This document shows, piece by piece, positions 2,633 to 59,760 of a stretch of 64,000 nt of DNA. How positions within the stretch are numbered: position 1 is the stretch's first letter; each line of letters opens with the position of its first letter. The notes under the pieces were generated by a model that saw only the letters and a program-made list of their open reading frames with translations, was not told the origin of the DNA and searched no databases. The position numbers and the translations under genes are program-made. Source of the stretch: a virus; the IMG/VR virus record IMGVR_UViG_3300030438_000078, positions 92,994-156,993 of that record, one strand, 5' to 3'.

Positions 2633-3334
2633 TTAAAGCAATTTATTTAAATCAAATTCGTCATCATCAGCTGGTTTGTCAATACCTACTGGATCTTCAG
2701 TTGACAATGGGTCATCTGATTTCATTTCTGTTGGTTTTGCTTTAAGATATTTATCTCTCTGAGTTTCTTCATAATCTGAGAAGAACAACTTAGTACCAAT
2801 ATAGTTATCAGCTACGAAGGATTCACCTTCCTTATTGATACCAACAATACGTGGAACATCAGCAACTACTTTACCATCTCTATTACGTCCAATCAGTTTA
2901 AGTTTAATTTCTGTACCTTTTGCCTTTTCAGTAATCTTAATAAGAGCATTAGCTACATCATCAAAACTCTTAAACTTAGAACTCATAGCCTGCATCTTTT
3001 CAAATCCTGCAGGATTCAAAATCTGAGCAGTTTGGGCTACAGTAGCCATAAGAACTTCAAAGTTAGAAGGCATGATTACCTTACCACCGTTCTGTCCTGG
3101 GAACTCTTTTCTTTCATCATCACCATCTTTTGGGAAGAATTTAGTCAGAGTAAAATAACCTTCTTCATTTTCAAAGTTAATATTAAGAACTTTGTAATGA
3201 GCATTGGGGTCTTTCTTACCTGCAAACTCTTTAATTTCACAACCCATGAATTTTACATCATAGATATTCCAAGGAGCCAAAGGACGACGAGTGTTTCTAA
3301 CTGCTGATTCTGCTGAAATTCCAAAATTAAACAT
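2633..3334 (-). CDS. hypothetical protein with acidic C-terminal tail (possible ssDNA-binding protein)
   Basis: 233 aa; C-terminal 'DDDEFDLNKLL' acidic tail as in SSB proteins; position inside replication module; no firm motif. Confidence 0.35.
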   Translation of the reverse strand: MFNFGISAESAVRNTRRPLAPWNIYDVKFMGCEIKEFAGKKDPNAHYKVLNINFENEEGYFTLTKFFPKDGDDERKEFPGQNGGKVIMPSNFEVLMATVAQTAQILNPAGFEKMQAMSSKFKSFDDVANALIKITEKAKGTEIKLKLIGRNRDGKVVADVPRIVGINKEGESFVADNYIGTKLFFSDYEETQRDKYLKAKPTEMKSDDPLSTEDPVGIDKPADDDEFDLNKLL

Positions 3335-3514
3335 AGTATAATCAATTTAAATATTTTAATAATAATTCTTCTTCATCTTTGCAATCATATTTAATCTCAA
3401 TAAAATAGATATTGTTTTTAAAACAATAATCTTTAACTATCTAATCTCTCTTCTACTATTTTCTAAGCTAACTTTTAATAAAATCTTCCTAAGTAACTTT
3501 CTTAGGCATATTTA

Positions 3515-4102
3515 TTAAAGTTTAAAATCAAATTTACTTAAGTCTGTATCATCTGCGTCAATGTTTAAGTTATCTAATTGTTCTATATCAAGTTCACTCT
3601 CGATATTAATAATCTCTTCAGGTACAGTAGCTGGTTCTTCTTGTACCTTATCTCCTACAAGATAATAAATTCCATTATCTTCGGTAGGTTCCAGCTTAAA
3701 TGTAGTACCATAAGCAGAAAGCTTTTCATTAGCAGCTCCTCTATAACTTACAGTATTACTCTTAGTTAATTTATTACCACCTTTAGTTCCGAAAGCGGCA
3801 TCAGTTCCAATAATAGGAACTGCTTTCTTATCCTTCTTCTTATATTTAATATCTACTCTACAATCTTCACAGATTTGAAGCAGATCGACAGCTCCTTGAG
3901 TTAATACTAACTTATTAGATTCCAGTGTAATAATTGGTTCTGGGTTAGAATCTACTTTAGAACTAGTAGATTTATTACTACTAGATTTACTTGGAGACTT
4001 CTTTTGTTCAGTGGTATCTACTTTTATTTCTTCTTTACCAATATAAGTAATTTCTCCAGTTTGTTCGTTAACATCGTAGTGAAAAAGTATATCAAGTTTC
4101 AT
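3515..4102 (-). CDS. hypothetical protein (Ser/Lys-rich low-complexity linker)
   Basis: 195-aa ORF, stop overlaps start of next gene. Confidence 0.4.
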   Translation of the reverse strand: MKLDILFHYDVNEQTGEITYIGKEEIKVDTTEQKKSPSKSSSNKSTSSKVDSNPEPIITLESNKLVLTQGAVDLLQICEDCRVDIKYKKKDKKAVPIIGTDAAFGTKGGNKLTKSNTVSYRGAANEKLSAYGTTFKLEPTEDNGIYYLVGDKVQEEPATVPEEIINIESELDIEQLDNLNIDADDTDLSKFDFKL

Positions 4103-4797
4103 TATTCTCCTTCGTTATAAGCGTCAATAACTTTAATAATCTCTGCTAAATCATTATCAATCTCCAATTCTTCAAACATACCTAAAGAAGTTTTTGCGAT
4201 ACAAGTTCCATCGCTGTTAGTAATAAGTTTATATTGCATTCTACCGTCATCTCCTTCACTTACTTTAGTAAAGAAAATATAAGTAAACAGACCTTCCAAA
4301 GTTACTTTTTCGGACAGTAATTTTCCAACTGTTTTAATAACATATTTTGGATTCATTACGTCTCCTACATTTTCACTATGAGTTAAGAAAACCATTTTGC
4401 AATCTTCTCTCATTTTCTCAGAATATCTAAGGATTTCCATAGCATGTTGTGCTAATTCACTAAACTTAGTATATCCTACTTCTGTAGCTCTATCAACAAA
4501 TTCATAAGACAATACATACTGAAAATCATCTACTATGACTTGTTTAATATTTGGCATCATTTTATCAATGATTTGAAGAATTTTCAGAATTTGATCCCAC
4601 TTAGAACTTACATAATAATTACCAGTCACATTCTTACCTTCTATTTTCAGAGGAACATATTTCTTTTTATATCCTCTAAAAGGTAAAGGTTTACCTGTAG
4701 TACTGATAATAAAAGTTTCTTTCGGGTCGAGGTTTCTTAAACTTGTACTTTTTCCAGTACCTGATTCACCAACAATAGCAATAGTCTCTGCAGCCAT
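4102..4797 (-). CDS. P-loop ATPase (RecA-like core; Sak4-like or helicase-loader-like)
   Basis: Walker A 'IVGESGTGKST' near N-terminus, Walker B-like 'VIVDDF'; 231 aa; adjacent to DnaB-like helicase. Confidence 0.5.
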   Translation of the reverse strand: MAAETIAIVGESGTGKSTSLRNLDPKETFIISTTGKPLPFRGYKKKYVPLKIEGKNVTGNYYVSSKWDQILKILQIIDKMMPNIKQVIVDDFQYVLSYEFVDRATEVGYTKFSELAQHAMEILRYSEKMREDCKMVFLTHSENVGDVMNPKYVIKTVGKLLSEKVTLEGLFTYIFFTKVSEGDDGRMQYKLITNSDGTCIAKTSLGMFEELEIDNDLAEIIKVIDAYNEGE

Positions 4798-5915
4798 TAT
4801 AATACAAAATTAAAATCATTTTCTTTATAATCTAATCTATTTGTATTATCTAGCTCGTTTTCTACCATAGTAGAACAATCATCTTTCAATAAAAAGTTTG
4901 GACTTAGATACTTATCATAATCATAGATTTCATCTGGTTTAGGAAGTTCTGCATAATGAGAACAATCACCATAGAAACCCATAGGTACTAAAATATCTGA
5001 AGTTCCAAAACGACTCTTTAGAAGAAACACCCCAATAAATTTCTGTTCAAGAATTTTAATGTTATATTTCTTATAAGTATTGAGTTTATACTTGTGAGGA
5101 CTAAATACAGCCATTACTACTTGACTATCATCATATAAAGATCCGGAATCTTTAAAGTCATTTTGATTTGGATCTTGCATACTCTGCTTTAGTCTTTCAT
5201 CACTTCCAGAATTTCTATTAAACTGGGCAACATGAATAGGAGATACAATCTTACATACATTTCTAAATCTTACAGAGTCTCTAGAAATAGCATCCATTTC
5301 ATCTTTCTTAGTTCTACCACTGGTATTTTTAACTAAGCTACAATGGTCAATACTAATTCCTAAGACTTGATTAGGATTATTAGGAATAAATTCTTCCCCT
5401 TCCCATCTTCCGAATTTTTTTAGAGTTTTAGTTACTTCCCGTATATAAACTTCTTCAGTTAATATACCTTCATAACTAATGATTCTCTTGTCCAATTCGT
5501 CTATAAAATCAGAACATTGTTCTAGTATATAAAATTCATCATCAGATAATATACAATCCTTACCTCTAGAGAATATCTTCTTAAATTTTAGTTCAACACC
5601 AAAATTATCAAAGATATACATAGAAATAAGTTTTGCATATACCTGAGGTCTTGTCATTTCCAAGTTAAACATCAACCAATATGGGTCTAGTTCTGGACAT
5701 TCTCCCTCTAGATAATGAATTAAAGGTTGATACATCAAAGCCCATAACATATAAGTTGATTTACCTGTTCCTGATGCACCTCCGATTAGATAACTAGTCC
5801 CCGGAAGAAAACCGTCCATATAGAGTTCAAGTTTAGAAGAACCTATACTTAAACCTATATTTTTTCCTTCTCTACCTTCTTTTACAAGGTTAAAGAACTC
5901 TTCTTTTCCTGTCAT
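4797..5915 (-). CDS. DnaB-like replicative helicase (C-terminal RecA-like domain)
   Basis: Walker A 'GGASGTGKST', 'ISIDHCSLV' (DnaB H3-like), 'VAQFNRNSGSDERLKQ' resembling the DnaB 'SQLNR...R' arginine-finger region; 372 aa. Confidence 0.6.
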   Translation of the reverse strand: MTGKEEFFNLVKEGREGKNIGLSIGSSKLELYMDGFLPGTSYLIGGASGTGKSTYMLWALMYQPLIHYLEGECPELDPYWLMFNLEMTRPQVYAKLISMYIFDNFGVELKFKKIFSRGKDCILSDDEFYILEQCSDFIDELDKRIISYEGILTEEVYIREVTKTLKKFGRWEGEEFIPNNPNQVLGISIDHCSLVKNTSGRTKKDEMDAISRDSVRFRNVCKIVSPIHVAQFNRNSGSDERLKQSMQDPNQNDFKDSGSLYDDSQVVMAVFSPHKYKLNTYKKYNIKILEQKFIGVFLLKSRFGTSDILVPMGFYGDCSHYAELPKPDEIYDYDKYLSPNFLLKDDCSTMVENELDNTNRLDYKENDFNFVL

Positions 5916-6793: not shown

Positions 6794-7990
6794 TTAAAAA
6801 CGATAAGTAAAATTTTGAACTTTCTTTTTATAAGGTTCCCATGGTTCTCCATTAAGAAGTTTTATTAGATTATCGACATCAATAGTAACATAACTACTGT
6901 TTTGATGTGACTTTCTAAACCATTCACATTCTACTGTTCCCTCTATTACTAGAGTAAACATTTCTGCATATTTGGAACCCTCCTTTCTAATTACTCTACC
7001 AGTTGATTGAGTAGCTTTAATAGGGCTAGAATCTACACCAAGTACAATACCTATTGATAATCCAGGACAATCAAAACCTTCAATAGCTAATTTACAACTA
7101 TTAATTACTCCTTTATTAATGGTATTAAACTCATTTTGAGTAATTCGATTTTTCTTTTTCCCTTCTTTACCAGTATATACATAACTTGGTATATCTTCCT
7201 TTCGGAGCATAGAATCTAAAGATTCTGCTATTGAAGTATTAGCAGAAAAAGTAATAATTTTCTTATCTAATCTATTCTTTATAATCTCAAAAGCCACATC
7301 TAGCTTTTTAGGATGATAATGAATAAATTTCTTTCTGCTTTGTAGACTTCTCATAAAAGCAGTAGCATGATAAGTAATTTGTTTAAATACTTCTTTTCTT
7401 TTAGATTCGTCTTTCTCATTTTTACATAATTCATCTCTATATTTGGCTCTATTTATGAAACCATGTTTTCCTAACATACCCATAACTAATTCCCAATCAA
7501 AGTTAAAATATTCAAAATGAGAAACAAATTCTTTATTATATTCTTTATAGGTATCCAAATCATCTACGGTTATGATAACTTGATATTCTGTAAAATCAGA
7601 AACCCAACCGTTTAGTTTAGCCACCTCTAAAGTAATAGTATCTACTACTGGACAATATTGATTTATTAAAACATGTTTACCATCTAGTCTTTCTATGGTT
7701 GCAGTTAAACCTAATATCAATTTATACTGAACTATTTTAAATATAGAAGAGAATGTGTCTGCTGCAAAACGATGAATTTCGTCTAATACCAATAGGTCAC
7801 ATTTTATTTTGGTTTTTGCGGCTGTATTTATAATAGCCACTTCTACATTTAGTCCTAATCCATTACTATCAATATGGTCTAACCACTGAAGTCTTAAAAG
7901 GTCAGTAGGAACTACTACCAGTACTCTTATACTAGGATACTTAGTTAGTAACTTTTTAATGGCGTTTAATGCCACACGAGTTTTTCCATA
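6794..7990 (-). CDS. SF2 (DEAH-type) helicase, exon 2
   Basis: Begins 'YGKTRVALNAI' (end of Walker A), motif II 'LVLDEIHR', motif III 'GLTAT', motif VI 'QSTGRVIR'; reading frame is open upstream to 7990 with no start codon. Confidence 0.65.
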   Translation of the reverse strand, partial: YGKTRVALNAIKKLLTKYPSIRVLVVVPTDLLRLQWLDHIDSNGLGLNVEVAIINTAAKTKIKCDLLVLDEIHRFAADTFSSIFKIVQYKLILGLTATIERLDGKHVLINQYCPVVDTITLEVAKLNGWVSDFTEYQVIITVDDLDTYKEYNKEFVSHFEYFNFDWELVMGMLGKHGFINRAKYRDELCKNEKDESKRKEVFKQITYHATAFMRSLQSRKKFIHYHPKKLDVAFEIIKNRLDKKIITFSANTSIAESLDSMLRKEDIPSYVYTGKEGKKKNRITQNEFNTINKGVINSCKLAIEGFDCPGLSIGIVLGVDSSPIKATQSTGRVIRKEGSKYAEMFTLVIEGTVECEWFRKSHQNSSYVTIDVDNLIKLLNGEPWEPYKKKVQNFTYRF

Positions 7991-9168
7991 CAGTTTTGTT
8001 ATCGTTAAGCTTTTTATCTTAACTTCTATAACTTTACGCTATAGCTCAGCGTACCTTTTTGTCCACTTATTTCAGTTGGGACAGAAACCACTCTTGGGTC
8101 TATTTTATTCTCTAATATAGAGGTTCAAGACCTACGCGTTACGATGGTATAGATTTTTTAGTTTCTATACTTATCTCGGGATTAACATACATCTAATCAT
8201 CACGACTCAAGCTACAGTCTTCCTCGATATTGGTTTCTAATAATTCAGTAAATTCCTCTACTGAACGGCTACCTTTTTTAAAGAAATTATATAACTTATA
8301 TTTTCTATCTAAGTAGATAGTACTATTATTGTATATATAATTAATAAACTTAATACTATTTTCTTTATTCCAATCTAAATAAAAGATTTCTTTAGAATGT
8401 CTTTTATCATGTTTTAATGAAGCTATTGTGTCAGAATATTTAATAATATTATTTAACATATCCATAGTTCCTAATACTATTACTCTAGGTGTTACTGTAT
8501 GTATATGTACATATCTAGTAATACAACCATCTCCATCAAAATAACCACGAATGAAATGCTTAACTAAATTTTCTGAAATATTTGGAAACTTTAGAGTTAA
8601 AGATTTATTAGGAGTACATCCCAGATTATTTAGAGTAGTCCAAAAATGTTTATTTGCAATACTAAATCTACATCTATTATTATCTATCAGTAGATTCTTA
8701 TTGTATCCAATAAACTTTTTAAACTTCTCTAAATGCTTTAAATCTTTTATTCCTAAAGATAATTCAAAACCATAGATACTTTTTATCCCTTCTCTAATAG
8801 GAGAACTATTAATAGTTCCGTCTGCAAATATAAAGCCTATCCAATAAGCTTTCTCTTCTGTATCTATAGAATCAAAAATATGTTCATTGAATTTAGAACA
8901 GTTTTGTTTATTAATTATCTCAATTCCTAACTCTTTAAAATGCTTAGAAAGAGTTCTTCTATCTACTTTTTCCCGATTTCCCATTTGAGTTAATGAGATA
9001 TCAGTTGTTTGAAATTCAAATGCTAATTTTTCCCAGTCTAAATTTTTCATAACTTGTACATTTTGATTATATACAATGTTACTTAAATTTTAAACCAGTA
9101 CAAAAAAAAATAATTTCTTAAGGCTGCTCTTGAACTATTATTTAATTATAGCTCAAAGAAAAATTGTA
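7991..9168 (-). mobile_element. self-splicing (group-I-like) intron with internal homing-endonuclease ORF interrupting the helicase P-loop
   Basis: Exon 1 ends ...ACG GGT (T G) at 9169 and exon 2 starts TAT GGA AAA ACT (Y G K T) at 7990, restoring an intact 'TGYGKT' Walker A; upstream exon ends in U and intron ends in G as in group I introns; in-frame TAA 9 codons into the intron; GC-richer structured segment 8035-8125. Confidence 0.55.
8193..9050 (-). CDS. LAGLIDADG-family homing endonuclease (intron-encoded)
   Basis: Two LAGLIDADG-like motifs: 'YWIGFIFADGT' and 'RGYFDGDGCI'; 285 aa; located wholly inside the insertion. Confidence 0.7.
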   Translation of the reverse strand: MKNLDWEKLAFEFQTTDISLTQMGNREKVDRRTLSKHFKELGIEIINKQNCSKFNEHIFDSIDTEEKAYWIGFIFADGTINSSPIREGIKSIYGFELSLGIKDLKHLEKFKKFIGYNKNLLIDNNRCRFSIANKHFWTTLNNLGCTPNKSLTLKFPNISENLVKHFIRGYFDGDGCITRYVHIHTVTPRVIVLGTMDMLNNIIKYSDTIASLKHDKRHSKEIFYLDWNKENSIKFINYIYNNSTIYLDRKYKLYNFFKKGSRSVEEFTELLETNIEEDCSLSRDD

Positions 9169-9273
9169 ACCCGTGCAGCCTTCTATAGTTCCCTTTCCTT
9201 TAGATAATAACCATTTCCTTAAACTTTCCTCCTGACGCTCATCACGAGTTAGAGGAGTAAAAAGGTCTTTCAT
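9169..9273 (-). CDS. SF2 helicase, exon 1 (35 codons)
   Basis: ATG at 9273 overlapping upstream TAA (TAATG); encodes 'MKDLFTPLTRDERQEESLRKWLLSKGKGTIEGCTG' ending in the first half of Walker A. Confidence 0.5.
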
Positions 9274-10136
9274 TAATCAATATTTCTAGTAACATCCCAG
9301 CCTTTAGTTTCTGCAACTTTCAGAATTTCGTCAATTTTATCCTCCCATTGTTTTGCCTGATTTTCACATTGATTTTGAAAACGATATAAAACTTTATTAG
9401 AAAGCAATTTCAATTGATCGCTGGTTAAATTAGCATATTTATCTCTCTTAAGTCTAAACATAGATCTAAATTCTGCATAACTTAATCCAGTATCACAGAT
9501 TTTCAAAGTAATAAGAGGATTAAGTCTCAACTCTTTACTTACTACTTCAAGTCTATTTACAGCTTTACCTGTAACAGGGTCTTTTCTGTATAAGTCTTTC
9601 TGCATTTCTTGTTGAGTAAACCACAATCCCATTTTAACAATAAAGTTAAGAGTAAGGTGAGAATTATCAAATAAACCCAAAGAATCTAAACAAGCATCCA
9701 TTACCAAACTAACTGGAACCTGTTCAAAGTCTACTGGCAATCCATTCATTATGTTACCAATAGGATAAGTTTTCAACTCTTCCTGAGTCAATACTTCTTT
9801 ATTATTCTTAACAATACTCCTCAAATCTTCCAAGCATCTTGTACTTGTATATTGCTTTTCCGCTCTAAGCCATCTAATAAGAAGCTCTGCACGACATCTC
9901 TTAATCTGGTCAGATACAATTTCTAGCAAAGTTATACGTCCTGGATTCTTAGAATCAGTATTATACAACATTTGCATACAATGATTATAGAACTTTCTTA
10001 ATTGGTCATACTCTACATCAACCAATTTAATTTCTTCCTGAACTCCATTTACTTTTGGACCTTTCCATACATAAGTGTTAATGTCATTAGCTTTGTCGTT
10101 TAAAGCTTCTTTCAGCTTATCTCCTAATACAGTCAT
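9273..10136 (-). CDS. hypothetical protein
   Basis: 287-aa ORF upstream of, and translationally coupled to, the helicase. Confidence 0.45.
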   Translation of the reverse strand: MTVLGDKLKEALNDKANDINTYVWKGPKVNGVQEEIKLVDVEYDQLRKFYNHCMQMLYNTDSKNPGRITLLEIVSDQIKRCRAELLIRWLRAEKQYTSTRCLEDLRSIVKNNKEVLTQEELKTYPIGNIMNGLPVDFEQVPVSLVMDACLDSLGLFDNSHLTLNFIVKMGLWFTQQEMQKDLYRKDPVTGKAVNRLEVVSKELRLNPLITLKICDTGLSYAEFRSMFRLKRDKYANLTSDQLKLLSNKVLYRFQNQCENQAKQWEDKIDEILKVAETKGWDVTRNID

Positions 10137-41231: not shown

Positions 41232-41486
41232 TCAGAGGATTTTTAAAAGTATCCCCACCGCTGTGGGGATTTTACAAATGTCCACCAAGAACAGACCTTC
41301 CTGTGCCACTATACTTTGAATTGTTTCACAACAACTACATAGTCTCTGGGCATACCCATTATGGTCTTGTAACAATTTAAATATAACATGACAACTTTTT
41401 TGTTTCACAACAATTTTATAAGATGGGTTCTCTATTCTGGAATCGAACCAGATCTTCCCACACTTGTGGTAGTGCCCATACACCAT
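41232..41486 (-). CDS. hypothetical Cys-containing protein
   Basis: 84-aa ORF. Confidence 0.35.
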   Translation of the reverse strand: MVYGHYHKCGKIWFDSRIENPSYKIVVKQKSCHVIFKLLQDHNGYAQRLCSCCETIQSIVAQEGLFLVDICKIPTAVGILLKIL

Positions 41487-41493
41487 TAGAGAA
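41428..41493 (-). ncRNA. truncated tRNA-like element without an anticodon loop
   Basis: Acceptor TTCTCTA/TAGAGAA, T-arm TCTGG-TTCGATT-CCAGA, short D-hairpin, and a CCAC-AAGT-GTGG tetraloop hairpin where the anticodon arm should be; ~66 nt. Confidence 0.3.
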
Positions 41494-43807: not shown

Positions 43808-43881
43808 TGGGGTATGGTCGTAATTGGTTAACGGGTCTGACTCTAAATCAGAAATTCTGGGTTCGAGTCCCAGTACCCCGA
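43808..43881 (+). tRNA. amber suppressor tRNA (anticodon CUA, reads UAG)
   Basis: Acceptor TGGGGTA/TACCCCG, D-loop TAATTGGTTAA, anticodon arm TCTGA-CTCTAAA-TCAGA with CTA at 43843-43845, variable AATT, T-arm CTGGG-TTCGAGT-CCCAG; 74 nt. Confidence 0.8.
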
Positions 43882-43900
43882 CAATTAAAACATTAATAAT

Positions 43901-44221
43901 ATGGTAAAAGCAGCTATCTATTTAAAGAACGGTCTAGTTTGTAAGACAAACAATATTGAAAAGAAATTAAAGAGAGAATCCCAAACAATAGAGATATTAG
44001 AAGAGTGGAAGTTTGATAGTGATTTATCTAAATTAGATGAGAAATATAACTACTGGAATAGAACATTAAATAGGAATACTAAAGAAGAGGAGATTTTAGA
44101 ATCAAGATTATATCGCTATATAAATCCAAAAACTAAATGTACTATTCTCAGTATTTATTCAGATTTAGAACAATGTAAATCTTATATTAGAGACTGGAAT
44201 GAATATGAAAGAATTAAGTGA
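43901..44221 (+). CDS. hypothetical protein
   Basis: 106-aa ORF directly downstream of the suppressor tRNA; no internal TAG. Confidence 0.45.
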   Translation: MVKAAIYLKNGLVCKTNNIEKKLKRESQTIEILEEWKFDSDLSKLDEKYNYWNRTLNRNTKEEEILESRLYRYINPKTKCTILSIYSDLEQCKSYIRDWNEYERIK

Positions 44222-44524
44222 ATACAATAGAGAGATTTAGATTAAATATGCTAAAGTAATGGTAGATGCTTCTATAGAAGCTATTGAGAATATATATAAA
44301 GAATTAAAAGATTCTAATTTATTAAATGAACAATTTGTTTTAGATTGGTTAGATAAATTAAATGAAATAAGTGTAAGATGATAATATTGCTTCTAAGATT
44401 AGAGGTGAGCATGTTGATTATATATTTAGTAATGAAATAAATATTAGGGAAACACTTAAAATACTAGATTGTATAGTCTTAACTACTAGGACTACTTTTG
44501 TGAAAATACTAAAGTAATATATTA

Positions 44525-44803
44525 ATGATAGACTTTAAGAAAACAATAATTAATTTACATGAAAAATTTCCAGAATATGATTTAGACACATTAATAAAAA
44601 TTATAGATGCTATTGTAGAAACAACAGATTACAGTAAATTTAACTATCCTTCTGGAGTTAGACAACCTTGGATAGATACCTCAAAAGTAACTTGTACTCC
44701 AGAATCTAATATATCTTATACCAAAAATACTTCAGATAAATGGATTGATATTATCAGTAGTGGGGTTCAAATCAGAAATCCACACGATACTATTATATAT
44801 TAA
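44525..44803 (+). CDS. hypothetical protein
   Basis: 92-aa ORF; followed by a terminator hairpin. Confidence 0.45.
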   Translation: MIDFKKTIINLHEKFPEYDLDTLIKIIDAIVETTDYSKFNYPSGVRQPWIDTSKVTCTPESNISYTKNTSDKWIDIISSGVQIRNPHDTIIY

Positions 44804-44807
44804 AAAG

Positions 44808-44848
44808 AAATACCCAGCCCAGCTTAATTGCTAGGTTGGGTATTTTTA
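44808..44848. terminator. bidirectional intrinsic terminator between convergent genes
   Basis: AAATACCCAGCC-(14 nt loop)-GGTTGGGTATTT followed by TTTTT on the plus strand and A/T-rich on the other; sits between plus gene ending 44803 and minus gene ending 44911. Confidence 0.45.
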
Positions 44849-44910
44849 TATCGCATATTTAGTGTACTTTGAGAGATTACCTTGTATATTATCCGGATTT
44901 ACTACATCGT

Positions 44911-46464
44911 TTACAGAATATTCTTGCCAAAATAGACAGGAACAGTTTTATCATCCATTAGTAATCTTTTCTTTTGTTTTAAAGGGGTATATAACTTTTT
45001 AGTAATTCCACTAGGGGAGTACTCAAACTAATTATATTCAGAATTCAATAATGCATCTTTAAGCTCCTATGAAGTTACAGTTGTCTGATTTCCTTGATAA
45101 ATATCTTCATAATCGGGTCTTGTATCATAAAATCCCTTCTTATTTAAAGGTCTACTACTTACACCCATAGTATAGGGATTCATTCCAATTATTTCTGCTT
45201 GCTATTCTGGAAGTAACTATACCTTACCTCTAAATCCACTAGAAGTGTTACCAAAATTTAAATGACTTCTTCCCATTTGTGTAACATCTATTTCACCAGG
45301 AAAACCTCTATAATCAGTAGCCTTTCTAACCCCAAAAGTCTTTGTAGGAAATTCATAAAGTACTTTTATTCCGATAGGTTCTGACGTACCTAATCCAGAA
45401 AATTCTTCCCAAGGAGTAGTGTGGGATATAAATAGTTTCTCACCCTCTATATTAGTACTAGGTAATTTACTTGATCTTGCCATTCTATAATAATTATCCC
45501 CATTTCTAGTAGATAAAAAATTAGACCATTCAGAATTTCTAAAAGCCCGTGTAGCTTTATCTATATTCTTAGGAGAATTATCTAAATTTCTACTTAATAT
45601 TTTAGCTCTAGCCCATTTATTACCAGCTTTAGCTAATCCATATTCAGCTACTCTACCTAATCCTTTAAATACAGGGTTTAAAGCAACTCCTTCTACATAT
45701 AACTAACCTATAGGGTCTGTACCGCTCATACTTATATTAGTAGTAGAGGTTTGTTCTTTACCATTAGCATCTTTCCATCTTACTACTTCAGAATTTGGTT
45801 GCTAACTTCTAGCATTAGCAACCTGTAATCTATTATATGCTTGAGGGTCTTCTTTCTTCATCTATTCTACTACTTGAGAATATTGAGGACCTTTATATTC
45901 TAATTTACCCCAAGCTGTTTGTTTCTTAGGAATTAATATCCCACCCTTTTTAAACTCTTTATTTTTATTTCCTTGCTCTATATACTACTTTAAGAAATTT
46001 CTCTGATTCTCATTTATCGGTATATAAACAGTATTCATTCCTTTATGTAATCTTTTTGTAAGTTCTGGTCGTAGGTCTAATTTATATTTATGTTCTGCTG
46101 GGTAATAAATAGAATCTCCTTTTATCATTGGTATCCCATTTAATTCCTCTAATACAAAATCTTGAACATCTCCAGGAGTAGTAAACAAAAAAGAATTTAG
46201 TTTTTTATTAAAGGTCTTTTCTAAAGCGCATCTAGTTGCATCACTACAGTTATTAGTAACTAGATTATAATCTTTATGTTTTCCGCCTTTATCTACTGTG
46301 TAGGGTCTATATCTATCATCCTTTGACCCAGTTATAGTTAAACTACTATGTCCAGTAAGTGGATATCTACTAACAAAAGGATAATAAGTATTTAGAACTG
46401 CATATTTAGAAGATTCATCTAATAACTCGTTTCCTTCCTAATATTTTGGTATTAATTTACTCAT
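44911..46464 (-). CDS. TAG-recoded protein (517 codons) with papain-like thiol-peptidase-type 'NNC' motif (PPPDE/LRAT-like)
   Basis: One frame from ATG 46464 to TAA 44911 contains about 10 in-frame TAGs and no TAA/TGA; it fuses ORF-track pieces 45985..46188 and 45217..45483; 'HKDYNLVTNNCSDATRCALEKTF' resembles the Cys box of PPPDE/NlpC-P60-like peptidases. Confidence 0.5.
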
Positions 46465-46669
46465 ATGTATTTATCTTTATATATTTAAGCCAACTAAATG
46501 GTTTTCTATTATCTAAGTATTCTAAGTTATCGTCATTGTTATGTGCTTCTTCTTCTAAGGAAATTTCATGATAACAATTCTTTTGTTTATCTTTAATTCT
46601 GAATAATCTAATTAATAAATACTCTAATCCATACCATATATAAAATCCAATAAATAAAGTTTCTATCAT
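46457..46669 (-). CDS. small membrane protein
   Basis: 70 aa; N-terminal TM 'LFIGFYIWYGLEYLLIRLF'; ends TAA; overlaps next gene start by 8 nt. Confidence 0.4.
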   Translation of the reverse strand: MIETLFIGFYIWYGLEYLLIRLFRIKDKQKNCYHEISLEEEAHNNDDNLEYLDNRKPFSWLKYIKINTYE

Positions 46670-46794
46670 CTATTTAGTATGAATCTTTTCATGATTTATA
46701 TCTATATTTGATAAACTATCTTTAGTAAATAAGATTCCAAATAGATTTATTGCTTTGTATCCTTTAAATGGAATAAATTTATTTTTAATTATTA

Positions 46795-46986
46795 TCATAT
46801 TATATAATACCAATCAGTACGTTCTCTTACTCCTTTATCTTTTAACTATTGAGAATTTAGATGATAATCACCGTTTCTAAAATTCAACTCTTTATCTACA
46901 TAATTCCAGTAAAAATATCCATGCCATCCTGGAAGAAGCAAAGTCTTTCCAGTTACAGCATATAAAGTAGCTTGATTATAATTCAT
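46795..46986 (-). CDS. small aromatic-rich protein with one in-frame TAG
   Basis: ATG at 46986 overlaps the TGA of the holin-like gene (ATGA); TAG at 46846-46848; ends TGA 46795. Confidence 0.35.
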
Positions 46987-47258
46987 AGTATAATTATTAA
47001 TATACCTAATATTATTCCAATTAAATCTGCTATTATATCTTTCCAATCCCATCCAGTACCATTTGATCTGAATTTATCATATAATTCTTTTGATATAGAA
47101 GCAACTATTGCTAATGCTACTCCTACTTTCAAATTAAAAACTCCTACTATTAATACAATAGCAAAATTAATTATCACATGTTTTAATTTATCATTTCCTT
47201 TTATAAGAGAAATAATATTATTTATCCAATTTTTTATTGTTTCCATCCTTATTACCAA
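46983..47258 (-). CDS. holin-like membrane protein
   Basis: 91 aa with two or three TM helices ('FAIVLIVGVFNLKVGVALAIVASI', 'IIADLIGIILGILIIIL') and charged loop; located in a lysis-like cassette. Confidence 0.45.
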   Translation of the reverse strand: MVIRMETIKNWINNIISLIKGNDKLKHVIINFAIVLIVGVFNLKVGVALAIVASISKELYDKFRSNGTGWDWKDIIADLIGIILGILIIIL

Positions 47259-47469
47259 ATTTCCAAATTCCTGTTACACTATCTATACCTAATAGTCCCA
47301 TGCAACACCATAGAACTGTATCTATCATTAATGGAGCTTGTATAACTTCAACTGTACAATATACCAATACTAAAAGACATATTATCCAACCAGTTAATCC
47401 GCAAACTCTCTTAGAAGATACTCCTGATTGAGAAATTACTACTTCCTTCAAAAATTGTATAAATCTCAT
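47218..47469 (-). CDS. membrane protein (holin/spanin-like)
   Basis: 83 aa, two TM helices, basic C-terminus; ATG overlaps TGA of upstream gene (ATGA). Confidence 0.4.
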   Translation of the reverse strand: MRFIQFLKEVVISQSGVSSKRVCGLTGWIICLLVLVYCTVEVIQAPLMIDTVLWCCMGLLGIDSVTGIWKFGNKDGNNKKLDK

Positions 47470-48485
47470 CTCTTAAAATATTGATTTATAACATCAGAGT
47501 AATTATCCACCTACTAAAAAGCATCATTTAATCCTCCGTTAATATATATATTATACATATCCTATATGGATTTAGAACTATTTAATCTACTTTTAAATTT
47601 ATTAGGCATTTTGTAGTAAGCATATAACATTCTATCTTCTGAACCTGGATTATTCTTAAAGAAAGCATGAACTGAATTTCCATACTTTTCTATTAATAGT
47701 TTTTTAGCATCGTTCAATTTCATATTAATAATCTCAGCTGCATCATTCAAAGATAAATTATCTTTTCCCCATACTTTCATTTTATTATCAAACGGTTTTT
47801 TATAAGTTAATCCAGTAATATTTAATCTTTGTTTGACGTCGTCTAAATTATCCAATCCAAAGTTTCCTAGTTTTTTATAAGATGTATTTCCAGGATTTTT
47901 AGTGGGATTTCGGGCAATTACAACACTATCTGGATCGACTGTTAATTTAGAATTAAGCATATTAGTAGCATAGCCTTCGTTTAACAGTACATTTAATAAT
48001 CCCCTCTTATGGGCAACATTAGAGAGTACTCCATTTAACTATTTTCTGTTTTTATCTAAAAATGAATATTTCCAATTTTTATCTATACCATTTTTATCTG
48101 TACCCCATTTAGTATTTACAATTACTTTATAATTAGGAGAGGTAACTTCTCCACCATCTTCATGTTTTTTAATTAAACCATAAGTTCCTTTCTTTAATCT
48201 TTTAATTGTAATCCATCCATTATCTAATATTGACCTATGTCCATCTGGCTTATGAATCTTCGAACCTTCCTCATGTTTCCATTTAGCAGCATTTCTAGCA
48301 AAGTTAGCCCTCTTCTTTTGTAATGGAGTAGTCTTAGGATTTTTTAATACAGCTCTTGCATGCTCCTATACACTTCTTCCTGCCTTTTTAGCAGAAGCTG
48401 TAAACTTTCCTCTGTTCTTCTTTTTAATATGAATACCAGAACCTTTCTTATATATCTAGCATCCAATAAATTCTAAATTGTTCAT
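47466..48485 (-). CDS. TAG-recoded basic protein (340 codons), candidate lysis/virion protein
   Basis: ATG 48485 to TGA 47466 with in-frame TAGs at 48456, 48366, 48039, 47562, 47514 and 47511; extends ORF-track piece 47562..47960 in both directions; very K/R-rich N-terminal third. Confidence 0.45.
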
Positions 48486-48730
48486 AAATTAATTAATTTC
48501 GCATGAATCTTTCTGTGACAATTACTACATACACAAATACACTTATCTAATTCTATTTTAAATAATCTAGTTGGTAAGTATTTAACAGACTGAGATATAT
48601 TATATACTTTATCATGTAAATGATGAACCTCTAAACAACAATATGCTGTTTCTCCACAAATACAACATTTATCTTTTTTATCCTTTAGTAATAATTTATT
48701 ACCATTAATTACTTCTGAAGGCTGTTTCAT
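48482..48730 (-). CDS. HNH endonuclease
   Basis: 'CCICGETAYCCLEVHHLHDK...CSNCHRKIH' HNH zinc-finger motif; 82 aa; ATGA overlap with downstream gene. Confidence 0.6.
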   Translation of the reverse strand: MKQPSEVINGNKLLLKDKKDKCCICGETAYCCLEVHHLHDKVYNISQSVKYLPTRLFKIELDKCICVCSNCHRKIHAKLINL

Positions 48731-48867
48731 AAAACACAGAATTAATTATTAATTATTAATATATTATAATAAATAATGATTTGTATCTTACAAAGAATAT
48801 TAATATACTTGAAAAGTATAAAATAAATATAGATAAATGTATTAAATGATTTAATGAACTATGATTA

Positions 48868-49782
48868 ATGGATAAAAGTAAAATTACAAAACAGAATGGC
48901 AACATTGCTTTTGAAGAAGAAGCTCACATTTATTATGATGTTACTTGCCCAGAAAAGAAATTTGTATCTGTGACTACGTTAATTCATTCTTTCACACAAC
49001 CCTTTGATAAAGAGTTCTGGTCAGCTTATAAAACATTAGAGAAACTTCTATCTAAGGATGAATGGTCTATAGAAAAAAAGTCTTTATTAAATACTAAGAA
49101 ATTTGATAAGGTCTTACTAGAACTTCATAATATTGATGTGAATGATTTTAATAGAGAGCAGCAATCTATCTTAGATGCATGGGATTTAGAGAATAGAAAC
49201 TCTTGCGAAAGAGGAACTAAAATACATGCAGAATTAGAAAACTCTTTTTATAAAAAGAAGAAGAATATAGATTTAAGCAAATACCAAATTGGTGGAAAGT
49301 TTGAATGTGTTAAGGATTATAATGAGTTAGACTTAGAAAATGGGGTATATCCTGAATATCTTATATCTAGAGTATCTGATGATGGAAAATTGAGAATAGC
49401 CGGTCAAATTGACTTATTAGTTAAAAAAGGAAATAAAATAATTATAGGAGACTGGAAAACTAATAAGAAAATTGAATTAAAATCATTTTTTGATTCTAAG
49501 ACTAAGTGTTCTACAAAAATGAAATATCCTTTAAATAATTTAGATGACTGTAATTATAATCACTATTGTTTACAATTAAGTACATATGCTTGGATGATTC
49601 AAAAATTAAATCCAGAATTTGAGATTGAAGATTTAGTATTAGTACATTTTGACCATAGTGACAATATGACAGTGTATCATTTACCATATTTAAAAGATGA
49701 AGTAATCAGAATGTTAGCTTATTATAAAAAAGAGTCTATTCTTTCTGAAAATAGAAACAAACGTAAACGTATAGAATATTAA
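48868..49782 (+). CDS. putative PD-(D/E)XK-family nuclease (RecB/Cas4-like exonuclease fold)
   Basis: 304 aa; 'GQIDLLVKKGNKIIIGDWKTNKK' matches D..(E/D)xK core; no TAG codons. Confidence 0.45.
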   Translation: MDKSKITKQNGNIAFEEEAHIYYDVTCPEKKFVSVTTLIHSFTQPFDKEFWSAYKTLEKLLSKDEWSIEKKSLLNTKKFDKVLLELHNIDVNDFNREQQSILDAWDLENRNSCERGTKIHAELENSFYKKKKNIDLSKYQIGGKFECVKDYNELDLENGVYPEYLISRVSDDGKLRIAGQIDLLVKKGNKIIIGDWKTNKKIELKSFFDSKTKCSTKMKYPLNNLDDCNYNHYCLQLSTYAWMIQKLNPEFEIEDLVLVHFDHSDNMTVYHLPYLKDEVIRMLAYYKKESILSENRNKRKRIEY

Positions 49783-49784
49783 TT

Positions 49785-50000
49785 ATGTCAACAGAAGAAA
49801 TAAATAAAAGAAGAGACATATGTAATCATTGTGGAATATATGATTCTAATAATGATTTATGCAATGGGCATTTATATATTAATCCAGATAATAATGATGT
49901 AAGTATAAATCCTAAAATTGGATATATAAAAGGATGTGGATGTTTATTAAGTAGAAAGATTCCTAATGAATTGAAACATTGTCCTGCAAAAAAATGGTAA
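49785..50000 (+). CDS. small zinc-ribbon protein
   Basis: 71 aa, 'CNHCG...CNG...CGC...C'. Confidence 0.35.
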   Translation: MSTEEINKRRDICNHCGIYDSNNDLCNGHLYINPDNNDVSINPKIGYIKGCGCLLSRKIPNELKHCPAKKW

Positions 50001-50335
50001 TGGACAAATTATTATATGGAACTCCAGCAGTAGCTAATCCTAATAAAATTTATATATTAACAGATGCCGATTATGTTAAAGTAGAAAATAAAGAAAAGAT
50101 GATAAAAAAATGGATCAAAGCAATATTTATTAAACCTTTTACTATTTTAAAAAGTATATGGTTTAATTTAACAAAAAAACAGGAAGATCTCTCAGAAAAG
50201 AGATTAGAAATATGTAATAACTGTGATAAGAAGATTAACATTAAATATGTAGGAGATATATGTGATATTTGCGGATGCGTATTAGATAATAAAACAAGGA
50301 TTAAAGATGAACATTGTGATTTATGTAAATGGTAA
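49979..50335 (+). CDS. hypothetical protein with C-terminal Cys cluster
   Basis: 118 aa; 'CNNCDKK...CDICGC...CDLCKW'. Confidence 0.35.
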   Translation: MSCKKMVMDKLLYGTPAVANPNKIYILTDADYVKVENKEKMIKKWIKAIFIKPFTILKSIWFNLTKKQEDLSEKRLEICNNCDKKINIKYVGDICDICGCVLDNKTRIKDEHCDLCKW

Positions 50336-50341
50336 TGAATT

Positions 50342-50938
50342 ATGGAAGAATTAAGAACAGAATTAAACAGTAATGAAAAGTTAGCATTAGCTACAACAGG
50401 AATGGAAGGAACAGGAAAACATTTTATTATTAATGGTGAAACTGCTGATAAAACTCTACAAAGAGAAAAGGCAATGACTTTTAATACTAAAGTTGATGAA
50501 TTTAATGATAAATTTGAAAGGCATAATAAAGCATTAGAAGATTTTGCTAAAGATTTATCTGAAGATATAAATGGTCTAGAAATCATGCCTATGTTTGGAT
50601 ATGCTTTGATTAAACCTTTTGACCAGAATCCTTTCCAGAAAGTTAAAGTTACTAATAGTGGTATTATTACAGATTTAGGTGGATATACTCCTACTTATAA
50701 ATCTCATGAAACTGGAGAAATTGAAGAAGAACAACAATATATTAAAGTCGGAACAGTTATTGAAGTTGGACATAAATGTGAATTCTTAAAACCTGGTGAT
50801 GTAGTATTCTACACTATTGCTAGTGAATGTATGGTTCCATTTTATAAACTTGGTTTTGTAGTAGTTAATGAAAACAGAATTCTAGCTGTTGTAAATGAGA
50901 AATTAACAGATAGAAAAAAGAATATTAATAAGGGTTAA
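50342..50938 (+). CDS. GroES-like co-chaperonin with N-terminal extension
   Basis: C-terminal ~100 aa ('MPMFGYALIKPFDQ...VKVTNSGIIT...EIEEEQQYIKVGTVIEVG...LKPGDVVFY...RILAVVNE') has the Hsp10 pattern: mobile loop, roof hairpin, conserved hydrophobic tail. Confidence 0.45.
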   Translation: MEELRTELNSNEKLALATTGMEGTGKHFIINGETADKTLQREKAMTFNTKVDEFNDKFERHNKALEDFAKDLSEDINGLEIMPMFGYALIKPFDQNPFQKVKVTNSGIITDLGGYTPTYKSHETGEIEEEQQYIKVGTVIEVGHKCEFLKPGDVVFYTIASECMVPFYKLGFVVVNENRILAVVNEKLTDRKKNINKG

Positions 50939-50939
50939 T

Positions 50940-51164
50940 ATGGAAGAAGAGAAGATTTATTTCCGACCTGGGGATTGTGTTACCTTAAAATAGCATAAGG
51001 TAATGCATTCTCCAGTTATGCTTGTTTTAAGAAAAGAAGCTGCTTTATTTAAAGATAATTAGAGTCTTAAAGGACTAAGATGTAGATGGTTTACTGATTC
51101 TGGGCTAATGCAGGAAGCGGTATTTAATACAAAAGATTTACAATTAGTAACAAGTAATTTTTAA
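50940..51164 (+). CDS. small protein with DUF2158-like 'PGD.V.LK' motif; three in-frame TAGs
   Basis: First plus-strand gene containing TAG codons; 'IYFRPGDCVTLKQHKVMHSPVMLVLRK...LRCRWF' resembles YodC/DUF2158 small proteins. Confidence 0.4.
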
Positions 51165-51168
51165 TAAA

Positions 51169-52461
51169 ATGGCATTAAATTTAGACCCAGAATTTGTACA
51201 TTATGTTTAGGGTATTTATGGAAACGCTGATTTAGATGGTAAAGTAATTAAATAGTTATATTAGACATGGAAGAGTAATCCTTAGTTTATTATAAATGCT
51301 TATAATTAGAAAAATCAAGTTCAGCAAAATAAACCTTAGCTAGCTTCAATGGCTAATAATAATATTAGATAGATTAATAAGCCAGAAGTAGCACAGGATG
51401 ATTTAAGTGGAATTACTAATTTTGGAAACGCATTTAAAATAGCTAGTTAGAGAAATTTAAGTTAGTTTAAATGGAAGGGAACTAAAGCTAATCCTAGTGG
51501 ATTATTTGCAGTTGAATTTGCAACAAAAAAATAGTCTACATCTAAGCCTACTAAGCCTACTAAACCTTCTCCTACTTCAAATAATTCTAACTAGTCAAGT
51601 CCTTCTTCTACTCAAACATGGTCAAGTTTACTTGAAAAAGCTCCGACTCTTGATTTAATAGAATCAGTAAAAGGAAAATCATTTTGGGATGGAACCTTTT
51701 TTCCAGTAGATAAATCTTTAGTTAAAAAGGCTCCTTCTCCTGTAACTAATAGTTCCTCTACTTTGAAACAAGATGTTCCAAGTAGTCCATTGCCAAGAAA
51801 TAGAGAAGCCGAATCATAGGCAAGACAATCAGCTTTTGAAAGAATGACATACTAGAATTGGAGAAGTAATAGACCCTCTGAAAATAGTTATTTTAGAGCA
51901 GGTTATAATTCTATAACTCCATCTTTTTATTAGTAGGGAGGTACTATGTAGCAACAATAGTCTTCTCAAGAATAGGAATTACAAAAAGCTTTCTTAGCAT
52001 ATTTAATTTAGGATGCAGCATAGCAAGGTATTCAATTACAATCAGAACAAGATTTACAAGCATATGCTTAGCAACTTGGAGAAGAAGGTATAAAAGCTAA
52101 GTATCAAGAATTTATGCAGAAAATGCAAGGAGGAACAATGGCTAAACTTGGGACAAAGTTAGAATATATTAAAAAACTAAAAGGAGTATGTCCAGAAGGC
52201 TATGAAATGTCCTATTACAAGGTAGGAGGAAGAATCTGCAAAACTTGTTAGAAAATGCATAAAATGGAAGCTGCATAGAAAGGGAAGAAACTAAATGCAG
52301 TTCAATAGTTTAAGAAAGATATGAAAACTAAAGATGAAGCATCTAGAGATTCTATAGCTATCAATAAATGGCAGGATTAGGATACAATGGCTAAGAAAGG
52401 AAATAAAGGAAACTTTAAAAAAGGAACATGGGTTCCAGATAGAAAGAAATATAAAAAATGA
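51169..52461 (+). CDS. Gln(TAG)-rich hypothetical protein (431 codons)
   Basis: Continuous protein-like frame with more than 25 in-frame TAGs, ends TGA; Ser/Pro/Thr-rich linker and C-terminal Cys motif 'CPEGYEMSYYKVGGRICKTC'. Confidence 0.5.
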
Positions 52462-52494
52462 GATTTAATTATCTTATATAAATGGGTATGATTT

Positions 52495-53055
52495 ATGAAT
52501 GTGTTTAGTTTTAATTCATTAAATAAAAGTTTAGAAATTAATGAACCTGAAATATTATTGGTAAGAGAGTTTAAAGCTTTAGTGGATAGGGATTTTACTT
52601 CTATGAAAGAAAAAGTTACTAGAGAACTCACTTATATCTTTCTAGCAATAGATTGGAAAAGTCCCTATAACCAATATTCTGAATAGGAAAGACATGAAGA
52701 AGCTTTAAATGATTCTGGATTAACAGAATCTGAATTTAATGATCCTATATTTAGAGAAGCATGTAGAAAATATAGGGCTTTATAGGATTCTAATAAATCA
52801 ATTAAGTTATTAGAAGCTGCTAAAAGAGCAGCTGATTAGTTTATAGATTATTTCGATACCATAGTAGACTTAAATGAAAGGGATAATAATGGAAAGCCTG
52901 TTTTCTAGGCAGAAAAAGTAATGAAAGAAATGGCTTAGTTACATAAGGTACATGAAGAATTAATTACCCTAGAAAATGAAGTTAAGAAGGAGCTTACTGA
53001 ACAGTCTACTATTAGAGGTGGTGGAGAAGACGGTTTTGATCCAGGAGATATTTAA
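52495..53055 (+). CDS. hypothetical protein upstream of terminase (candidate small terminase subunit)
   Basis: 187 codons, 5 in-frame TAGs, ends TAA three nt before the terL ATG. Confidence 0.45.
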
Positions 53056-53057
53056 TT

Positions 53058-55208: not shown

Positions 55209-55495
55209 TTCCGCAAAATCGGTGAAGACTAAGATGATTAAATTTATTGAAGAACATTAAATAGAAAATTTAATAAATTTAATCATTATGTTAATACCGA
55301 GGTAACTTAATTAATCGTTGAGTACCGTAACGCGTAGGAGATGAGCGTTATAGAGAGCAATAATTCTCCCAAGAGTGTGGAACATCCTATAGTGGATGAA
55401 AATGTACGCTGACCCGTCTGATGATTAAATCAGAATATAGTAAGGAGGAAACTCCCGGAATTATTGAATAAAAAATCAATAAGATAACAAAAGTG

Positions 55496-55714
55496 ATGAC
55501 AGAATTAGCAGATTAGGAATTGTCTGGAAGACAACCTTCTTTAGTTGTTAAAGATGTTGAAGAGTTTCAAGATTTTGGATATTATAGAGATGAAAGGGGT
55601 TATATAAGACATGGTGTAATACCTAAGAGAGAACCTCAACTAATTAATATAAATATAGAAAAATATGATGACCCATACAGAATTGAAACAAGCGATCCTA
55701 GATTATATACGTGA
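55496..55714 (+). CDS. hypothetical protein
   Basis: 73 codons, TAG at codon 7, ends TGA. Confidence 0.35.
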
Positions 55715-58865: not shown

Positions 58866-58876
58866 ATTATATAATT

Positions 58877-59605: not shown

Positions 59606-59760
59606 AAGAAAAGCAATAATTACTTATAAAAACCTTCTATCTAAAGTAAAGAAAGGTTATAGACCAGATTATAAGGATTTACTAAATTTAATTTGTTTTA
59701 TAAGTCTCCCAGAAAAAATAGATAATTATGATTTTATAAAACAACAACTATTAAATTAGA

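Follow-up and report, generated by a model that had tools for sequence, protein, structure and literature searches.

How a helicase gene can yield a working protein when its reading frame breaks off within the Walker-A motif (P-loop) and resumes only 1,178 nucleotides (nt) later is the question raised by one locus in IMG/VR virus record IMGVR_UViG_3300030438_000078, of which we analysed a single stretch of 64,000 nt (positions 92,994 to 156,993 of the record), referred to here as the window. The intervening DNA carries an open reading frame (ORF) for a LAGLIDADG protein, and an initial annotation, made from the letters of the DNA alone, had proposed a mobile self-splicing intron in an essential replication gene. 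Our analysis indicates that the insert is almost certainly a group I intron. The proposal of an endonuclease-bearing mobile intron in the helicase gene is supported, as a group I intron, by covariation, by the P1 and P9.0 pairings and by relatives that lack an ORF, and it is highly likely that the element is a mobile IA-type group I intron with a P7.1 extension and a homing endonuclease, whose exons are spliced to give a superfamily 2 (SF2) helicase. The parts of the locus are as follows; throughout, a caret marks an insertion or splice site.

9169–9273, minus strand: helicase exon 1, 35 codons, ending EGCTG (ORF reading; collinear with an uninterrupted homologue, locus L001)
7991–9168, minus strand: predicted group I intron, IA-like, 1,178 nt (family profile, E = 3.9e-51; covariation; blastn matches end at 7991–7995)
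8193–9050, minus strand: double-motif LAGLIDADG homing-endonuclease ORF, 285 amino acids (aa), in the predicted P1 loop (Pfam LAGLIDADG_3, PHROG 4645)
6794–7990, minus strand: helicase exon 2, from YGKTRVALN to the stop codon (motifs DEIH, TAT and QSTGRVIR; Pfam, PHROG)

Exon 1 (9273–9169) translates as MKDLFTPLTRDERQEESLRKWLLSKGKGTIEGCTG, and its ATG shares bases with the stop codon of the gene upstream. Reading on in frame past the exon adds YNFSLSYN and then meets TAA, so that the stop is the ninth codon. Exon 2 is open from 7990 to its stop at 6794 and begins YGKTRVALNAIKKLL; its earliest possible start codon, a GTG, lies after the P-loop. Between the two, the insert measures exactly 1,178 nt (9168–7991), with U9169 as the base before it and G7991 as its last base. 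The initial annotation had described a 35-aa first exon, a second exon opening YGKTRVALN with no start codon, and an insert of just this length and with these boundary bases and this early stop, and its description was accurate to the base.

It had further expected the joined exons to give an intact TGYGKT P-loop. The joined reading frame encodes a 433-aa protein with motifs I (GCTGYGKT), II (DEIH), III (TAT) and VI (QSTGRVIR), which matches Pfam ResIII, DEAD and Helicase_C as well as PHROG 16 ‘DNA helicase’. Comparison with an intron-less helicase, which the annotation had called for, points the same way: the homologue in MT836666 (locus L001) is a continuous protein of 425 aa (...EACTGFGKTRCAINCL... 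and ...GRGTIEACTGFGKTRCAINCL...), is collinear with the joined exons and shares 66.5% identity across the full joined query. The ligated mRNA is predicted to read ...ACG GGU^UAU GGA AAA ACU... (...ACGGGU^UAUGGAAAA...), with the spliced helicase junction ...GCACGGGU^UAUGGAAAAACU..., which would restore the Walker-A motif GCTGYGKT. The corresponding intron-less site in MT836666 is ...ACAGGCTTTGGTAAAACA..., and the window exons joined without the intron give ...ACGGGTTATGGAAAAACT....

A blastn search against annotated phages matched the last ~195 nt of the insert, and every match ends at window positions 7991–7995. The matches come from Staphylococcus phage 6ec, Mammaliicoccus phages, Clostridium phage CB452P1, a Bacillus phage, Prevotella phage Lak-A1 and several crAss-like phages. 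In annotated records they lie between the two parts of a split gene or, outside any annotated feature, immediately upstream of a gene. The copy in Staphylococcus phage 6ec interrupts a tape-measure gene and follows immediately on an ORF whose annotation is that of an HNH endonuclease domain protein; that in crAss cr6_1 lies in a split ATPase gene, directly after an endonuclease ORF annotated ‘intron-encoded endonuclease’; and that in Mammaliicoccus phi116, preceded by an endonuclease ORF, is separated from the portal gene so that it stands two genes upstream of it. In cr118_1, an ORF-less copy of ~340 nt splits a DnaB-type helicase inside its Walker-A motif (IAGISGSG^KSSFVNT), and in further ORF-less relatives of 264–337 nt (L056, L006) the core stands directly between the two halves of a Walker-A motif. 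Scanning viral contigs with a degenerate motif gave at least 119 stretches, and de-duplication left at least 81 distinct copies with a complete 3′ end. Chance similarity is excluded, because a family profile built without the window sequence matches window positions 8278–7992 at E = 3.9e-51 (nhmmer). Among the matches listed, 27 of the 81 copies stand directly before Lys-Ser or Lys-Thr codons; the junctions that were checked are the Walker-A motifs of DnaB-type helicases, of an SF2 helicase, of the split ATPase of crAss cr6_1 and of other P-loop proteins.

The family alignment revealed a complete fold. Unguided MAFFT alignment followed by RNAalifold recovers P6, the long-range P7, P7.1, P8, P9 and P9.1, and P3, P4, P5, P2 and an (A)UUGCCGU element 5′ of P2 were located by inspection. 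P3 is a perfect 6-base-pair (bp) complement of the bases that follow the invariant CCAAGAGU; next come AAAAU, the 5′ strand of P4 (UCGGUG), a short P5 and, within UAAUACCGAG, the 3′ strand of P4, in a P/Q-like arrangement. The P/Q-like elements AAUAUCGGKGAA and UAAUCCCGAG are present in the alignment, together with an A-rich J8/7. The full structure was scored on 29 non-redundant aligned cores of ~265 positions by explicit pair counting, with P3 given its own bracket type as it crosses P7, a pseudoknot that a covariance model cannot encode. Across the 65 scored pairs, 97.3% of cells are paired, compared with 30–45% when the partners are slid by 1–3 columns; both sides change in 49 of the 65 pairs; and the covariation score is 0.67 as against 0.06–0.12 in the slid versions, with none of 500 shuffles reaching the observed values. 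P3 is paired in all cores with compensatory changes in six of six pairs, and P7.1 (8132–8128 with 8101–8097) has such changes in four of five, with an inner P7.1a in 14 of the 29 sequences. The elements follow one another in the order P2, P3, J3/4, P4, P5, P4′, P6, J6/7, P7, P7.1(a), P3′, P8, A-rich J8/7, P7′, P9, P9.1 and a terminal G. By this comparative evidence the family fold is that of a group I intron bearing, between P7 and P3′, the extension of subgroup IA; extra helices at this point reportedly served Michel and Westhof in 1990 as the subgroup IA criterion.

The pairings that define the two splice sites covary as well. All 29 aligned introns end in G, and the two bases before it covary with two purines after P7′ (GAA-UU, GAG-CU, GGA-UC and GGG-CC); among the matches listed, both of these P9.0 pairs form in 71 of 81 copies, whereas shuffling gives a mean of 47 and a maximum of 55. 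At the 5′ end, the ORF-less L056 intron (264 nt) pairs GUGGU^AAU with AUUGCCGU, placing a U·G wobble at the splice site. This P1 element covaries in the relatives L006, L056, L070, L009, L032, L078, L118 and L123, both on its intron side (AAUA with UAUU, UUCU with GGAA, AGAA with UUCU, AAAU with AUUU, UAC with GUA) and on its exon side (UGGU with GCCG versus GGGU with GCCC). Automatic choice of 5′ splice sites took the best P1 score together with an open reading frame; sites that it placed within the endonuclease ORF (FIRGYFDG^DG), where Gly codons mimic the target, were discarded, and the only junctions retained were those for which a short ORF-less intron, or the reconstitution of a Walker-A motif or orthologous protein, gave support.

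Mapped onto the window, the predicted intron comprises the following elements, listed from its 5′ end.

9166–9171, minus strand: P1 5′ strand, exon GGU plus intron UAC, with the predicted 5′ splice site after U9169 (pairs with 8272–8267; covaries in both halves)
9051–9165, minus strand: 5′ part of the P1 loop that precedes the endonuclease ORF, non-coding (unconserved in L070 and L009)
8267–8272, minus strand: predicted internal guide sequence, the P1 3′ strand, GUAGCC (the family’s (A)UUGCCGU element; compensatory relative to L070 and L009)
8244–8265, minus strand: P2 hairpin, UUCAGUA with UACUGAA (both-side changes in 7 of 7 pairs)
8232–8237, minus strand: P3 5′ strand, GAAACC (6 of 6 pairs compensatory, 100% paired; pseudoknot with P7)
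8176–8227, minus strand: P4 (UCGAGG with UCCCGA, one A·C mismatch) and P5 (GAC with GUU) (scored alignment, helix 3)
8143–8175, minus strand: P6/P6a hairpin (9 of 10 pairs compensatory; recovered by unguided RNAalifold)
8133–8137, minus strand: P7 5′ strand, GCGUA (100% paired; G-C to A-U covariation in 11 of 29 sequences)
8097–8132, minus strand: P7.1/P7.1a extension between P7 and P3′ (scored alignment, helices 6 and 7)
8084–8089, minus strand: P3 3′ strand, GGUUUC, after the invariant CCAAGAGU (alignment and pair scoring)
8060–8083, minus strand: P8 hairpin (scored alignment, helix 8)
8049–8059, minus strand: J8/7 (AAAAGG), then the P7 3′ strand (UACGC) (alignment and pair scoring)
8004–8046, minus strand: P9.0 5′ bases A8046 and G8045, P9 hairpin (8044–8026) and P9.1 hairpin (8023–8004) (helices 9–11; P9.0 covariation)
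7991–7993, minus strand: P9.0 3′ bases C7993 and U7992 and omega-G, G7991, with the predicted 3′ splice site after G7991 (29 of 29 introns end in G)

The window copy retains 64 of the 65 scored pairs and all of the invariant joining segments. Its P1 consists of G9171, G9170 and U9169^U9168, A9167 and C9166 with G8272, U8271, A8270, G8269, C8268 and C8267, and the wobble U9169·G8269 falls exactly at the predicted 5′ splice site. In P9.0, A8046 pairs with U7992 and G8045 with C7993, next to the terminal G7991. A P10 is also available, as the guide bases GUA (8272–8270) can pair with UAU at the start of exon 2 (7990–7988). The splice sites proposed by the initial annotation thus coincide exactly with the P1 wobble and the terminal G, and the structured segment that it had noted at 8035–8125 is real, being the P7.1-P3′-P8-J8/7-P7′-P9 part of the ribozyme core. 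A separate complementarity in this region links exon 1 AAGGCUGC (~9183–9176) perfectly with intron GCAGCCUU (~9125–9118) over 8 bp, which would close a ~50-nt loop around the 5′ splice site; this complementarity is unconserved in L070 or L009 and may be due to chance.

In two related gut-phage contigs, L070 and MT835492 (L009), the orthologous helicase gene contains an intron and an endonuclease that are homologous to those of the window. In both, the intron lies at TG(Y/F)G^K(S/T), two codons (6 nt) downstream of the TG^YGKT site in the window.

L070: protein GATGYG, then KTRCAL; DNA GGTTATGGT, then TTCTAAA; guide flank GGAA-GCCGU
MT835492 (L009): protein ASTGFG, then KSRIGL; DNA GGCTTTGGT, then TTCAATT; guide flank GGAA-GCCGU
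Window: protein GCTG, then YGKTRV; DNA GCACGGGT, then TACAATT; guide flank GGUA-GCCGU

At intron position 2 the relatives have U and the window has A. This difference has its counterpart in the guide flank, where a change from A to U (GGAA to GGUA) both keeps P1 and creates P10 with the new 3′ exon. As far as sequence comparison can tell, such paired P1/P10 changes are evidence of selection for splicing at the site occupied in the window, which argues against a dead intron. The idea that the first six intron bases in the window, TACAAT, are a relic of the exon codons TATGGT (‘sliding’) was dropped; because the L009 intron starts TTCAATT, the 5′ end is homologous intron sequence. One intron/endonuclease lineage at two sites 6 nt apart, taken with the family’s preference for GGU^AAR in the Walker-A motifs of unrelated ATPases, might be a natural record of a retargeted group I intron, in which the short guide GCC makes the universal P-loop a motif-defined rather than a gene-defined homing site. 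We advance this tentatively, judging it somewhat more apt to be wrong than right; the route could have been reverse splicing into the neighbouring GGU or drift in endonuclease specificity.

Several observations weigh against a spliced group I intron. Rfam gives no group I or group II match on the gene strand between 7800 and 9400 even at E ≤ 10 and no match on three related loci, and the best score of the family against RF00028, that of the ORF-less cr118_1 copy, is 10.7 bits (E = 5) for a cutoff of 50. The initial annotation had suggested this search and had counted a missing ribozyme match towards refuting the intron; the match is indeed missing, but the conclusion drawn from it does not hold. 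The T4 td and nrdB introns, proven experimentally to self-splice, score 40.3 and 35.7 bits in a control, both below the RF00028 gathering score of 50. Because these proven introns also fail the cutoff and the family shows a complete covarying fold, the missing match is a limit of model sensitivity and not a refutation of the intron. The silence of Rfam, along with an endonuclease ORF that has its own start and stop codons, would also suit a free-standing endonuclease that splits the gene without splicing and leaves two polypeptides to assemble, as in some T4-like phage split genes. Yet the break falls inside the P-loop (TG^YGKT), with a start codon in exon 2 only beyond it; ~290 nt of covarying ribozyme structure ending exactly at an exon boundary would go unexplained; and ORF-less relatives carry the RNA alone at like sites. 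A split gene is on these grounds very improbable. Some other intervening element, with only the interrupted reading frame in its favour, is barely conceivable: the insert starts UACAAU where a group II intron would start GUGYG, it has no domain V and no Rfam group II match, its ORF is of the LAGLIDADG type and not a reverse transcriptase, and its RNA core covers only ~290 nt. It is not an intein, because it is out of frame with a stop at the ninth codon, and 1,178 nt far exceeds the known gaps of translational bypass.

Other adverse points concern the window copy itself and would suit a decaying or inactive intron, with the helicase a pseudogene or splicing dependent on a protein helper such as a LAGLIDADG maturase activity. 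The single broken pair, A·C in P4 (A8224), is G-C in 28 of 28 other sequences; the P5 loop carries ~24 extra nt; P1 comprises just 6 bp, closed across a ~890-nt loop; and the guide has a competing partner inside the ORF, CGUGGU^UAU (~8552–8544, FIRG^YFDG), with which it pairs over 9 bp as against 6 bp at the true 5′ site. Each of these features could lower splicing efficiency. Set against decay are the 64 intact pairs and conserved joining segments, and the lineage-specific P1/P10 changes that fit the exact insertion site and imply selection for splicing; both exons are open and conserved, at the above identity to the intron-less homologue over the full length, and A·C pairs are tolerated in many helices. 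We consider decay improbable, and the window copy, on the basis of its structure and lineage-specific compensatory changes, very probably splicing-competent. The ORF-internal complement may be a cryptic splice site or a simple consequence of Gly codons, and the same mimicry of a splice site by the second LAGLIDADG motif (UUUGAUGGU^GAUGG) also occurs in relatives.

For the group I intron favoured here, we infer self-splicing from the fold, along the following lines. The helicase gene would be transcribed as one pre-mRNA, in which the intron would fold into a P3–P9 catalytic core held by the P3/P7 pseudoknot. The guide GUAGCC (8272–8267) would pair with GGU^UAC (9171–9166), presenting the U·G wobble at the 5′ splice site, and free guanosine would attack after U9169. 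G7991, docked with the help of A8046-U7992 and G8045-C7993, would set the 3′ splice site, and exon ligation would restore the Walker-A motif GCTGYGKT of the SF2 helicase. The 285-aa LAGLIDADG protein would be translated from its own start codon within the P1 loop and would cut intron-less helicase alleles of co-infecting relatives, whose repair would copy the intron in.

The free-standing double-LAGLIDADG ORF reported at 8193–9050 was confirmed by its two motifs, YWIGFIFADG (residues ~68–77) and FIRGYFDGDG (residues ~167–176), and by its matches to Pfam LAGLIDADG_3 (28.2 bits, passing the cutoff of 22.5) and PHROG 4645 ‘endonuclease’ (2e-54). Its score against LAGLIDADG_1, 20.5 bits, is below the cutoff of 23.1, and a PDB sequence search returned chance-level matches only. 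The protein shares 49% identity with the L070 endonuclease. Because the guide (8272–8267) pairs with the exon–intron junction (9171–9166), the ORF sits in the P1 loop, and its final ~30 codons overlap the guide sequence, P2, P3, P4 and P5, with the TAG stop inside the enlarged P5 loop. By analogy with LAGLIDADG enzymes encoded in other introns, it would be a homing endonuclease that cuts intron-less helicase alleles; alleles with the intron and without it (MT836666) both exist, which fits homing. A scan for sigma-70 promoters upstream of the ORF found 8 sites, with 8.7 expected. Readthrough of the TAG (8195–8193) would add 17 residues up to a TAA at ~8141–8139, across P5–P6, and the homologous ORF of L070 likewise extends into P6–P7; readthrough late in infection might couple the form of the endonuclease to a code switch in the phage.

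Such a switch is suggested by the late-gene region (44000–64000), where coding density is 0.12–0.56 under the standard code as against 0.8–1.0 with TAG as a sense codon. The plus strand also encodes, at 43808–43882, a suppressor tRNA whose anticodon is CUA. Judging by coding density, TAG is a sense codon in this region; the replication region, including the helicase, reads normally in the standard code.

A second copy of the family lies within this recoded region.

55167–55495, plus strand: predicted ORF-less group I intron, 329 nt, of the same family (nhmmer, E = 4.5e-28)
About 53058–55166 and 55496–55714, plus strand: large terminase gene exons (PHROG 6681, 6.6e-65)

This copy has a P1 of GGGU^AU with AUGCCC, a P3 of UUCCGC with GUGGAA, a P9.0 of AC with GU and a terminal G at 55495, and it interrupts the terminase at ...KFDIIASMG^MTELAD.... 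The joined terminase contains 15 in-frame TAG codons, and its match to PHROG 6681 ‘terminase large subunit’ spans the junction; Pfam gives no match on the joined protein. A regular-expression scan of the window for the J8/7–P7′ motif found the helicase copy only, the terminase copy being found by nhmmer. Elsewhere (L032, L084), the family targets a second terminase site, TMLFGGTG^GDMGAPL; the window terminase holds this peptide uninterrupted (~54080), so that the site is a vacant potential homing site.

The terminase also points to the identity of the phage, whose DNA in the window has a G+C content of 29.7%. Because its closest annotated terminase relatives are Crassvirales at ~27% identity, with unclassified human-fecal phages at 43–48%, we place it on terminase similarity as a divergent crAss-like gut phage. 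The label of an essential replication gene for the interrupted helicase, part of the initial proposal, is plausible, because the gene is that of an SF2 helicase adjoining a DnaB-like helicase. At gathering thresholds, Rfam matches only tRNAs in the whole window.

18291–41493, minus strand: tRNA array, 9 genes by ARAGORN and 11 by Rfam, at 18.3, 24.2–25.0, 30.0–30.4, 34.6, 38.5, 39.6 and 41.4 kb

The array includes two tRNA-Met genes, and the call at 41424–41493 has an irregular anticodon loop. A 287-aa gene of the window (9273–10136) is uninterrupted; its L070 homologue (2797–4966, minus strand) is split into pieces of 162 and 130 aa, with a different, second LAGLIDADG ORF of 353 aa between them.

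Since the T4 td, nrdB and nrdD introns, it has been textbook knowledge that essential phage genes can contain group I introns with homing endonucleases. The T4 introns (with I-TevI, II and III) resemble that of the window in having an IA-type core with an extension between P7 and P3′, in occupying genes of nucleotide or DNA metabolism at codons for conserved catalytic motifs, and in carrying a free-standing endonuclease ORF in a peripheral loop; td and nrdB also share a score below the Rfam gathering threshold. The T4 enzymes are of the GIY-YIG or HNH type, whereas that of the window is a double-motif LAGLIDADG protein. The T4 ORFs are known from peripheral loops other than P1, whereas that of the window is in P1 and overlaps the guide and P2–P5. 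Unlike td and nrdB, with their 40.3 and 35.7 bits, the window core is too far from RF00028 for any match. Within the family, the cores of crAss cr6_1, cr118_1, 6ec, Lak-A1, MT835492 and L070 can be aligned with that of the window at the DNA level, and L070 and MT835492 share a homologous endonuclease in the orthologous helicase; Staphylococcus phage 6ec has an HNH-annotated ORF in place of LAGLIDADG, and some copies have no ORF.

Closer in habitat are two groups of human-gut phages, according to the available sections of two reports. Among crAss-like phages, the Delta and Zeta groups have group I introns; crAss-like phages also carry suppressor tRNAs, their late genes are recoded, and their replication block includes helicases of the DnaB and SNF2 types (Yutin et al. 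2021, PMC7886860). For Jug jumbo gut phages, 2,513 group I introns were predicted, and metatranscriptome reads confirmed 37 of 76 (PMC12880540). As these sections present them, both groups resemble the window in being Bacteroidota-type phages of the human gut that combine many group I introns with suppressor tRNAs and with recoding in the late genes; in both, essential genes such as terL are interrupted by endonucleases of the LAGLIDADG or HNH type (PMC7886860, PMC12880540). Mobile group I introns that bring a homing endonuclease into an essential phage gene are thus not new in themselves, being textbook and already reported as frequent in crAss-like and other gut phages. The same sections of the two papers describe neither the helicase P-loop site nor the 6-nt shift nor the family structure. 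The family structure and its invisibility to Rfam may be new, a judgement made apart from the subtype database for group I introns (Selles Vidal et al. 2025). The preference for the Gly^Lys codons of Walker-A motifs may likewise be new, as may the shift of the insertion site by 6 nt with compensatory P1/P10 changes and the location of a LAGLIDADG ORF within the P1 loop, where it runs into the 5′ half of the core.

For annotation, these results mean that the helicase and terminase of this phage are to be read as intact genes after intron removal and not as fragments, which standard gene callers and Rfam both miss. They also mean, as a matter of method, that an absent Rfam match cannot exclude a group I intron. 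Because a family of at least 81 distinct copies is invisible to RF00028, a covariance model made for this family would bring many split phage genes to light. Finally, the Walker-A preference and the 6-nt shift offer a tractable natural system for how introns and their endonucleases acquire new targets.

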